64,000 bases of DNA from a virus (Duplodnaviria > Caudoviricetes), in IMG/VR virus record IMGVR_UViG_3300024259_000011, one strand, 5' to 3'. This document shows positions 9,397-39,240 of this stretch, in pieces (position 1 is the first letter of the stretch; every line of letters begins with the position of its first letter). Position numbers and translations under genes: made by a program. Under the pieces are notes generated by a model. The model did not search any database. It saw only the letters and a program-made list of their open reading frames with translations, and had not been told where the DNA came from.

Positions 9397-12300
9397 TTAA
9401 CAACTCTGTGCATTCTGGTTGCCGGGGGCGCACTTGTTGCCAGTACATTCTAGTCCCAGAGCTTCTTGCGGATTGACTTTCACACCATTAACCTTGAACT
9501 CAAAGTGGAGGTGGGCTCCGTACGAGCCGCCAGTATTATCCGCTTGTCCGATTACTTGTCCCTTTGTTACCGTGGCACCCACGGATACTGCGGAAGACAG
9601 CAGATGCATGTATATTGATTCTCTACCGCCGCCATGATCAATCTTAACCATGTTGCCGGCGCCGCCATTACAACTGCCGCCATTGGATGTGTCATTGCAG
9701 TTGTTAGTCGCCAAAGTAACTGTGCCCGGGGCACCAGCAAGAAGTGGTCCGCCATGAGTCGAGGGATTGGATGAAACTACATCAATGCCGTTGTGATTTT
9801 GCATTGCCCCAGTGTCCCAGCAACGGGCGCGCATTCCATAATCAGAAGTAATCGACGGAGTACCAGCGATTGGCCATGAGCCGTTCTGGGCTATGTCTCC
9901 CAACGCTGCAACTTGAGCCGCTGTCATTGGAGTGCCGCCGCCGCCGGCTGCGCCTGCAGCACCGGGTACACCAGCAGCGCCACCGCATTGTTCTGGAGCG
10001 CCGGCTGCAGCAGCAGCGCCGCCACCGGAACCGGCTACGGTTCCTCCTGCACCAGCAGCGTTAGAGCCTTGAGAAGCCCACTCTTGTGCTGGCGGCATGG
10101 GAACGCCACCACTTGTCATGTAGCCTTTAATAAGGGTCATAAGCCGATCCCAGTCAAAGGTTGGTTGACCGTTGATGTTGGGGCTATAAGAGTTAATCTG
10201 GCGTTTTCCATTTGGTGCCATCTTACCACCATCGGGACCGCCTTCAACCGGATAAGAAATGCCATCTGGAAATGGTACGGAGAGGTGTGTGCCCGGGTCG
10301 GAGCGATCTGCTTTTGTCTCGTCATGACCAAAGATGTGAGTTCGATCAACTGGGATCTGGTTTCTGTGACAAACGTTTGCGATTAAGAATGCTAAGTTTT
10401 CATATACTGCATCATTATAAATAGATCCCGGGCTGTTTGACTCTTGTTCCGGAATGCCGCTGATCTCGACTTGAACTGCGCCGGTGTTGTTGCCGCCGGG
10501 AACGGATTTATCTTTGTCCATGGAGACACCCCAAGCATCTCTGCGATATTCTCCGGCGCTCAAGCCTCCGGCGCCGTTTGCAACAGCACTCTCTTTTACG
10601 AATTGGAACACCCAACCGCCCTGATTAATGCCGTAGTGAGTGCTGCCCAATCCGGAGCCGTCGTCAAAGTCAGAGCCGCCGGCGGTCTGGTTATTGCCGG
10701 CTGTTGTATGAACAATAAAATGAGTGATATCTGCTGGGGTTCTGTTCCGTTCGCTCCACCTGTTGGCGTGTGCCGGATACCAGCCGCCTTGATCGTTTGG
10801 GTTGCGACCGCCATCAAAGTTAATGTAACTGAATGGCGGATAAGCGTCTAGGGAAGCGGCGCCGCCTTGTGCTACTCCGCCGCCCTCGGCGGGTGTAGTG
10901 CCGTCAGCAGGCGGGGGATCTTCAGCGCTGGCTGCGCCAGAAGTATCAGTCTCTTCCACTGGGTCAGAACCGAAGTAGGCATCTGGGTCTGGGATGTCGG
11001 CTGAGCCGTCTGAGTATTCGTCTGTTGCCGCGTCAACATCTGACGCTCCGCTGCCGCCGCTGTCGTATCCTAGTTCCGTAGCGGCTGCTTGAGCTACATG
11101 TGACGCGGCTTTGCCTGCATCTGCGATATCTCCCATTCCTGAAAAAGCGCTCACCATGCTAGGTGCGGTTTGAACAGCCATCATATATGCTTCCAAGGAG
11201 ATTGTCTGCATAGCAGGGTTTCTCTCGGCAACACGGTTCCATGATTCAATGCGTTCAATAGCTTCTTGAATCTGTTTACCGAATGTTTCATAGCTTAAGT
11301 TGTTCAAAGCGCCACCTTCAGCAGCTTGTTCATAAGCAAGAGGGCTGAATCGATTAAAGTTTTTAATGATATCCCAGCGGGTACTCTTCCAACAAGGAGT
11401 ATGCTCTTCTGCGTTCAGCCAGTCCCACCATGTCATAGAATATCGAACTTGAGACTTGATCGGCGGGACCATCGGTTCTTCTCTTGGGAACGCTCGGCTG
11501 GTTACATCTTTCACTTCGTCTATAACCTCGGCTGCAACACCGAAACCATCAGCTATATCTTCCATGAGTTCATCACCAGTAAGATCTGCTACAAGATCTG
11601 CAGCCTTACCTCCCAGATCGACAGCTTCTTCTAAGGAGAGTCCGTTACAAGGCGCATCAATCAAAGTTGGATCCCAGCCCTCACATTCGCAACGTGGATC
11701 TGGATCTCCCTCTTCGCAGAACCATTTTAGCCCAAAATAACCAGAACTCCAATCTTCAACACGCTCGGTGGTGGACTCGAACCCGGGCTCAGGCAGATAA
11801 GATGGCGAGTCAGCTTCTGTAGATAGCTCTCCGATATAAGGCGCTGTGCCCTTTGGAGCAAGGAACTCAAGCTCCTCCCTCACACGACCGGGCGGTTTCT
11901 CCGAAGACACTCTATAGTCTTCAAAGCCACTGCCCATCAATCCGAAAGCCGGAATAATATTCTTGAATCCCATTTTGACATAATCTTCTATTGCTGTAAC
12001 AAAATCCGTAGCCTTCAATGCGTTCTGACCGCGCACAGACCGAAGGAACACCTCGCCTGTGGAATCATTAACATAGACATCAGACTTTCCATTGGTGGAA
12101 AGTATTTGGCATATTGACCAATCAACCTTAGAAAAGCATGCATAAGGGAATGAATCTTTATATCGAATGGCGACTGGAGTTTCTTCGCCGTCTAGCTCTG
12201 CGATAGTGTATGTCGCGCTAGGAAGCCATGGGTTTGTGAACCCTACCTGTAGGTGGTATTCCCTACCCGCCTTCATCATCGCTGACGTAAGATATTCTGC

Positions 12301-38897: not shown

Positions 38898-38942
38898 CTA
38901 TTTAGTTCTATAGTAAATAGTTTGCTTTTCTGTGTTCTCCTG

Positions 38943-39018
38943 TGGTGGGTCAACTGGGGCTTGAACCCAGAACCTACGGGTTAAAAGCCCGGTGCTCTAC
39001 CAATTGAGCTATTGACCC
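38943..39018 (-). tRNA. trnK: tRNA-Lys(TTT)
   Basis: GGGTCAATAGCTCAATTGGTAGAGC...CTTTTAA...TTCAAGC...ACCA cloverleaf. Confidence 0.95.
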
Positions 39019-39027
39019 ATAAAAAAT

Positions 39028-39156
39028 GCTCCCCAGCATCGACTCGACCAAACACGTTTCATCGGGCTTGTCACCCTCCACGCCATCTGCATTGCAATTT
39101 AGTCCTCATGGCGATCTGCACGTAGGCGCTTTTCCGGGGCGCCGCTGAACGGGAGC
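39028..39156 (-). ncRNA. Unclassified structured RNA with kink-turn
   Basis: Ends pair (GCTCCC+CAGC with GCTG+GGGAGC); GGCGC/GCGCC hairpin; K-turn hairpin; followed by T6; fills the gap between tRNA-Gly and tRNA-Lys. Confidence 0.65.
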
Positions 39157-39165
39157 GGAAAGGAA

Positions 39166-39240
39166 TGGAGCGGGAAACGAGATTTGAACTCGCGACCCTC
39201 ACGTTGGCAACGTGATGCTCTACCACTGAGCTATTCCCGC
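39166..39240 (-). tRNA. trnG: tRNA-Gly(GCC)
   Basis: GCGGGAATAGCTCAGTGGTAGAGC...TTGCCAA...TTCAAAT...TCCA. Confidence 0.96.

Follow-up and report, generated by a model that had tools for sequence, protein, structure and literature searches.

Between the tRNA-Gly and tRNA-Lys genes of an uncultured marine phage lies a 129-nt non-coding unit, rich in G+C and carrying a rare consensus kink-turn (K-turn), for which we found no Rfam or tRNA match and no relatives. Given its placement, its G+C content, and this K-turn, we consider a processed small RNA to be the single most likely reading of the unit, at a probability of roughly 45%. It would be encoded by a small RNA gene, or a module resembling one, that is specific to the lineage and forms part of the polycistronic transcript of the phage tRNAs. 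The unit occupies positions 39028..39156 (minus strand) of the window, by which we mean the whole 64,000-nt stretch of phage DNA analyzed here. Near-identical DNA turns up in 14 DNA runs on marine or seawater samples, representing ≥10 studies.

Placement and layout of the unit in the tRNA array

Read along the minus strand, the region starts with a sigma70-like promoter and an 80-aa ORF, followed by tRNA-Arg(UCU) (40004-39928), a cytidylyltransferase-like gene (39756-39247; PF01467), tRNA-Gly(GCC) (39166..39240), a 147-nt gap (39165-39019) that holds the unit, tRNA-Lys(UUU) (38943..39018), a 45-nt A+T-rich gap, tRNA-Asn(GUU) (38897-38821), and protein genes. CCA is encoded in all four tRNAs. 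The upstream and downstream neighbors of the unit, tRNA-Gly and tRNA-Lys, were both called by ARAGORN and matched RF00005 at 73 and 74 bits, respectively, while tRNA-Asn is unusual (51.8 bits, with a rewired D arm). The promoter (40294-40266, minus strand) is of the sigma70 type with a near-consensus TTGACA-17-TATATT and a TG, and stands upstream of the 80-aa ORF, tRNA-Arg, the cytidylyltransferase gene, and the tRNA array. A Pfam search of ten neighboring ORFs identified only metabolic genes and PhoH, none of them RNA-related.

Several other features of the region were recorded. The gap between tRNA-Lys and tRNA-Asn contains a candidate promoter word, AACTATTTA (38914-38922, minus strand), and a CTAAATA word (38899-38905, minus strand) that ends 1 nt ahead of tRNA-Asn, i.e., tRNA-Asn and the genes behind it may have their own promoter. 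In several relatives, the slot of tRNA-Asn(GUU) is taken by a 95–97-nt, class-II-shaped tRNA(GUU) with the Asn anticodon (L001 3495-3591, L026 4973-5067, L045 5070-5165, L056 4684-4778, and L061 4097-4191), which displays U1-A72, G73, a 3-bp D stem, and a long variable arm. The window also encodes a phage tmRNA (47908-48279, minus strand) that is kept across the clade (L288 1019-1439, and many of loci L006-L077). Its tag is ANNNNHFDSVRLAA in the window and ANNNYYFEESRLAA in the complete contig G003, where the tmRNA is directly followed by tRNA-Gly(GCC).

Within the 147-nt gap, a pyrimidine-rich 9-nt linker, UUCCUUUCC (39157..39165), leads from the CCA of tRNA-Gly to the stem that closes the unit, and a 9-nt trailer, A-UUUUUU-AU (39019..39027), leads from the unit to G1 of tRNA-Lys, with no CCA after the unit. 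Lying on the tRNA strand and 9 nt from each flanking tRNA, the unit is thus placed in the array like a tRNA gene. A motif scan detected no promoter or terminator consensus inside the gap (39019-39165), and, given the shared strand, the two 9-nt distances, and the lack of such sites, co-transcription of the unit with the tRNAs, as first proposed, is a reasonable inference.

The main helices of the preliminary description, which placed the unit between tRNA-Gly and tRNA-Lys with a bulged terminal stem and a GGCGC/GCGCC hairpin, can all be found on the minus strand. The closing stem comprises 10 bp (6 + 4): its 5′ strand (39144..39156; GCUCCC, a GUU bulge, and CAGC) is paired with probabilities of 0.92–0.98, and its 3′ strand (39028..39037; GCUG GGGAGC) was delimited from the sequence and the pair probabilities, GCUCCC (39156-39151) pairing with GGGAGC (39033-39028) and CAGC (39147-39144) with GCUG (39037-39034). 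This 3′ strand can also form a weak local hairpin, AUGCU-GGGG-AGCAU. The hairpin behind the 5′ strand (39125..39143) pairs GGCGC (39143-39139) with GCGCC (39129-39125) around a 9-nt loop at a probability of ~0.62. Further along are an alternative helix (39081..39113), the K-turn hairpin (39054..39083), and a weak T-arm-like segment, GUUUG GUCGAGU CGAUG (39037..39053), which was recognized by local alignment and a position weight matrix (PWM) and continues into the closing stem's 3′ strand. The U6 tract said to end the unit does exist, but at 39026-39021, just past the unit's given end.

In folding energy and end pairing, the unit is unremarkable. Compared to dinucleotide shuffles, its folding energy is ordinary for both the 147-nt gap (z = +0.89) and the 129-nt unit (z = +0.39), and in 16% of shuffles the ends pair no less well than they do in the closing stem (p = 0.16). 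The ensemble is diffuse, with the minimum free energy (MFE) structure at a frequency of 0.011. The proposed competition between a CGCCAU/AUGGCG helix and the K-turn was borne out: the alternative helix, formed by CGCCAU (39113-39108) and AUGGCG (39086-39081) around a 21-nt loop, overlaps the non-canonical (NC) stem of the K-turn, and folds constrained to the K-turn (−40.6 kcal/mol) or to the alternative helix (−40.4 kcal/mol) are nearly equal to each other and to the MFE (−41.1 kcal/mol). The pair probability is ~0.33 for the alternative helix vs ~0.22 for the K-turn, the latter lying ≤0.5 kcal/mol from the MFE under an energy model that credits no G·A pairs.

A consensus K-turn and its rarity

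Judged by its sequence, the hairpin at 39083-39054 satisfies each element of the consensus for simple K-turns. Its bulged strand, CCC-GAU-GA-A, faces G-GA-GGG, and the two provide a 3-nt bulge and sheared pairs, with a Watson–Crick C helix at the bulge and an NC helix past the G·A pairs. The core consists of the GAU bulge, tandem sheared G·A/A·G pairs, and G·A at 3n·3b. The NC stem, GCGU/ACGU, continues with A-U, C-G, G-C, and U·G after A·G at 3b·3n, and the C stem, GGG/CCC, places C=G at −1b·−1n beside the bulge. K-turns with A·G at 3b·3n and C=G at −1b·−1n belong to the class able to fold in Mg2+ without protein. The hairpin is capped by 7 nt, UGACAAG, in which a U·G pair closes a GACAA pentaloop that we take to resemble GNRA-like pentaloops, e.g., the boxB loop of phage P22.

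Next, we evaluated how often such a hairpin arises by chance. With a loose descriptor of K-turn hairpins, the window yields no more sites than expected by chance (15 vs 15.1 ± 4.0 in random sequence). A strict descriptor, requiring C=G at −1, A·G at 3b·3n, an all-Watson–Crick C stem, and ≥3 NC pairs, recovered the K-turns of two genuine SAM-I riboswitches used as a positive control. It has a single match in the window, at the unit's site (39078), vs 0.115 expected per random 64 kb, and no match in 774 kb of related loci. When the spacer was shuffled with its dinucleotides preserved, only 5 of 20,000 sequences matched (2.5 × 10−4 per shuffle), although such p-values are inflated, the descriptor having been composed after the site was known and the site having been picked from a 64-kb screen. 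Because the descriptor is post hoc and followed this first 64-kb screen, we grade the rarity of the K-turn as moderate rather than strong evidence. It is the sole feature of the unit's fold that beats chance.

A consensus K-turn hairpin was also observed in an unrelated viral contig (L162 13331-13350, minus strand), where GGUGGAGGGG...CCCCGAUGAAACC immediately follows a TGGTATAAT box and precedes an ORF. At the gathering score, Rfam offered no match for this hairpin, which may be a 5′-leader K-turn.

For the unit itself, the course that we infer for transcription, processing, stability, and any function is as follows. The unit would be transcribed together with tRNA-Gly and tRNA-Lys, RNase P, by cleaving at G1 of tRNA-Lys, and the maturation of the tRNA-Gly 3′ end would free a ~147-nt fragment, and exonucleases would shorten it as far as the 10-bp closing stem, yielding an RNA of ~129–135 nt. 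The enzymes of tRNA maturation would define the ends of this RNA, and the closing stem would protect these ends. Inside it, the Kt-7/SAM-I-type K-turn would bend one arm, and the bend would allow the GACAA-capped tip to dock on another helix or to present a protein-binding surface.

Relatives, composition, and competing readings

Related loci were retrieved via the neighboring cytidylyltransferase gene (80 from IMG/VR and 80 from metagenomes, 59–76% identity, all marine), and many of these 160 loci carry a tmRNA and tRNA arrays. The preliminary description had looked to conserved, covarying homologs of the unit. None was found, whether by blastn, nhmmer, or a covariance model built on the structure given in that description (model R1), across the 160 related loci, five whole contigs of relatives, and one extra region; the single R1 match, in locus L091 at E = 0.29, is an unrelated sequence. 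Likewise, tblastx of the gap against 161 related loci yielded no match, and blastn against 50,697 phage records yielded only a 24-nt chance match. In pattern scans of IMG/VR, neither an exact 24-mer nor the tRNA-Gly 3′ end was matched, and relaxed K-turn words had ≥120 matches, with two near a tRNA among those listed, both on the antisense strand of tRNA-Met. In GTDB genomes, a K-turn 21-mer had no match, with no sign of a bacterial source, and a 22-mer of the hairpin (39143-39125 region) occurred in two actinobacterial genomes as chance matches sharing neither flanks nor context. The unit is not repeated elsewhere in the window. It is identical in contigs from four marine DNA runs, taken from different studies, which therefore offer neither population variation nor covariation to analyze. 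The sequencing runs listed for the 147-nt gap included no RNA run.

The closest syntenic relative, L001 (identical in sequence to L081), is collinear with the window over ≥4.6 kb, but its cytidylyltransferase gene leads directly to tRNA(GUU), and the whole cassette of tRNA-Gly, unit, and tRNA-Lys is missing. In L003 and L083, tRNA-Gly and tRNA-Lys(CUU) are 1 nt apart, while 2.1 kb separate tRNA-Gly from tRNA-Lys(UUU) in the complete contig G003. From this missing cassette and varied spacing, we conclude that the array is fluid and the unit confined to the source lineage.

The gap may instead have no function, being either what remains of a tRNA gene that took up insertions and decayed or the scar of a recombination that joined tRNA-Gly and tRNA-Lys. 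Its RNA would be removed from the precursor and degraded, and the K-turn would be accidental. We consider such a leftover almost as likely as a small RNA. An orphan sequence in a clade with a fluid array order, missing from the nearest relative, is in line with it, and so are the folding energy, the end pairing, and the loose K-turn descriptor, all of which are at chance. The strict K-turn argues otherwise, both by its rarity among shuffles and by its absence from the 774 kb of related DNA.

Composition bears on this choice from both sides. With a G+C content of 0.597, the unit ranks in the top 1.4% of 129-nt windows, compared to 0.459 for the window or genome, 0.53–0.68 for the four tRNAs, and 0.31 for the gap between tRNA-Lys and tRNA-Asn. 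In a leftover, this high G+C would come from a tRNA ancestor. However, inter-tRNA gaps of 150–260 nt in relatives are A+T-rich without exception (16 of 16, G+C 0.24–0.40), i.e., the clade's other long gaps have drifted to low G+C and the unit's gap has not.

A tRNA ancestry may have left further traces at the 3′ end. Local alignment to the 3′ thirds of tRNAs revealed a likeness between the unit's final 30 nt and a variable loop, T arm, and acceptor strand (score 29 vs 17.4 ± 2.4 for the best matches of shuffled queries, p = 0.002), the best match being an odd tRNA-Thr in L079, and the closing stem with the A that follows it resembles an acceptor stem with its discriminator. On the other hand, the T-arm PWM assigns this 3′ end only 2.8 bits (rank 64 of 128,000 positions), and the T-arm-like segment has a damaged T loop, with G at the U54 position and three of five stem pairs. 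The unit's 3′ third may thus derive from a tRNA, which we treat as a lead and not a result because the T-arm matrix score is weak, the 5′ third is dissimilar, and CCA is absent. While a tRNA-like 3′ end with a damaged T loop and no CCA would fit a pseudogene, the tRNA models were blind to the gap even at relaxed settings (no RF00005 match at E up to 10, and no call by relaxed ARAGORN with or without introns), the 5′ third displays no tRNA similarity in local alignment (p = 0.95), and 129 nt far exceeds the length of a tRNA. Elsewhere in the window, the word CCGGGTTCGAGTCCACC (11770-11786, minus strand) scores 19.9 bits on the clade's T-arm matrix, with two of five stem positions pairing, and probably lies inside a coding region.

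Another possibility, raised alongside the small RNA at the outset, is a cis-acting switch or attenuator, in which the closing stem would alternate with the AUGCU-GGGG-AGCAU hairpin plus U6, and the CGCCAU/AUGGCG helix with the K-turn, tuning read-through to tRNA-Lys, tRNA-Asn, and the genes behind them. Some of the required geometry is in place: the K-turn and alternative helices exclude each other at almost equal energy, the hairpin followed by U6 shares sequence with the closing stem's 3′ strand, and the K-turn is of the type used by SAM-I riboswitches. The regulatory parts fare poorly, however. The sole terminator-like hairpin, immediately before U6, has 5 bp and only two G-C pairs, and a scan for intrinsic terminators (a G+C-rich hairpin of ≥5 pairs with ≥3 G-C, and a U tract directly after it) reported no site in 39019-39165. 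No riboswitch family matched, even at E up to 10, and the element sits between tRNA genes rather than in a 5′ leader. In addition, given the candidate promoter word at 38922-38914, between tRNA-Lys and tRNA-Asn, the downstream genes need not rely on read-through. Taken together, these observations make a switch improbable.

A self-cleaving ribozyme, i.e., a twister-like permutation that helps cut the tRNA precursor, is far less probable still. Twister-P5 (RF02684, clan CL00120) does provide the best Rfam score in the gap, and the unit's words CAAGCCCG and GGAGGG presumably also occur in twister ribozymes, but this score is 13.5 bits (E = 1.2, 39120-39062), far under the gathering score of 37.6. 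In the alignment, hairpin pairs are broken, the consensus words GAGgG and GGUCcC correspond to GAUCG and GGGUGA here, and the GGG/CCC words are missing; no other ribozyme family scores. An encoded small protein is equally remote, since the two mechanical ORFs (39026-39148, plus strand, 40 aa; 39071-39226, minus strand, 51 aa, GTG start) respectively oppose every neighboring gene and start within tRNA-Gly, with a ribosome-binding site seen for neither and an empty tblastx search of the 161 related loci.

The processed small RNA that we favor is not free of difficulties. It is supported by the rarity of the strict K-turn, the bases shared with SAM-I K-turns (see below), and a K-turn fold near the MFE, as well as by the high G+C, the tRNA-gene-like placement, the tRNA-like 3′ 30 nt, the precedent of phage T4, and the absence of a coding signal. 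It has against it the lack of any homolog, the absence of the cassette from L001, and the 1-nt spacing of tRNA-Gly and tRNA-Lys in L003 and L083, together with an ordinary folding energy and closing stem, the missing CCA, a post hoc descriptor, and the dissimilarity of the T4 RNAs. A more ambitious version, in which a widespread marine phage would make from its tRNA precursor a functional, autonomously folding K-turn RNA representing a new small-RNA class without described relatives, e.g., a tRNA-minihelix-like decoy or scaffold for a host or phage protein, is in our view less likely than not.

Comparison with known RNAs

Rfam searches of the complete window at the gathering score, and of 1.5-kb and 166-nt segments with E values up to 10 allowed, returned only tRNAs, the tmRNA, and noise. 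For box C/D sRNAs, where a C box RUGAUGA and a D box CUGA would form a terminal K-turn, the best model was snoU54 at 13.6 bits vs a gathering score of 35, and the non-bulged strand reads UGGA rather than CUGA. The Rfam comparison suggested in the preliminary description, which could have removed the unit's novelty, did not: on these searches, no known family matches the unit.

The closest structural likeness is to the P2 K-turn of SAM-I riboswitches (RF00162), a member of the Kt-7 class of simple K-turns. The preliminary description had equated the words at 39054-39083 with those of SAM-I P2, and a scan of IMG/VR with the pattern GTGGAGGG-N4-14-CCCGATGAAAC agrees with this: two of its four matches are true RF00162 riboswitch aptamers, and none of the four is related to the unit. 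The words GUGGAGGG ... CCCGAUGAAAC are identical in the unit and in SAM-I P2, all 19 of 19 specified bases are common to both, and the two share the 3-nt bulge, the tandem G·A/A·G pairs, A·G at 3b·3n, and C=G at −1. Beyond the K-turn, the likeness ends, as had been stated from the start. The unit lacks the four-way junction, P1, P3, P4, and the SAM-binding core, and its cap is 7 nt long compared to the usual short P2b loop. In the unit, RF00162 (gathering score 44.4 bits) was matched neither at that score nor, for the 166-nt segment, with E values up to 10, while the same tool scores true SAM-I aptamers at 57–76 bits.

If the unit is a real small RNA, it would provide a protein-independent K-turn outside riboswitches and rRNA, and a compact, tractable example of the small RNAs of phage tRNA clusters. 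If it is instead a relic, it would illustrate how the decaying DNA of a tRNA array can give rise to a consensus K-turn, which would call for caution in motif-based RNA discovery.

In position and size, the unit appears analogous to rnaC (139 nt) and rnaD (119 nt) of phage T4, which are annotated as stable RNAs of the T4 tRNA cluster that immediately follow a tRNA (NC_000866 70908-71171). These T4 species 1 and 2 RNAs are, like the unit, small non-tRNA units on the tRNA strand, a few nt from a neighboring tRNA. rnaC ends in a T-arm-like hairpin, of which the unit has a weak counterpart. In contrast, a MAFFT alignment revealed no meaningful identity between the unit and rnaC or rnaD, model R1 had no match at the T4 locus, and the strict K-turn descriptor, which matches the unit, matched neither T4 RNA. 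rnaC also folds with a z of −4.6 and has an intact GGGUUCGAAUCCC T arm, compared to a z of +0.4 and a damaged T loop for the unit. We know of no function for the T4 species 1 and 2 RNAs; to our knowledge, small stable RNAs have been known in phage tRNA clusters since T4 and are still functionally unexplained. If real, the unit, though itself an orphan in sequence, would join this known kind of small non-tRNA RNAs embedded in phage tRNA clusters.
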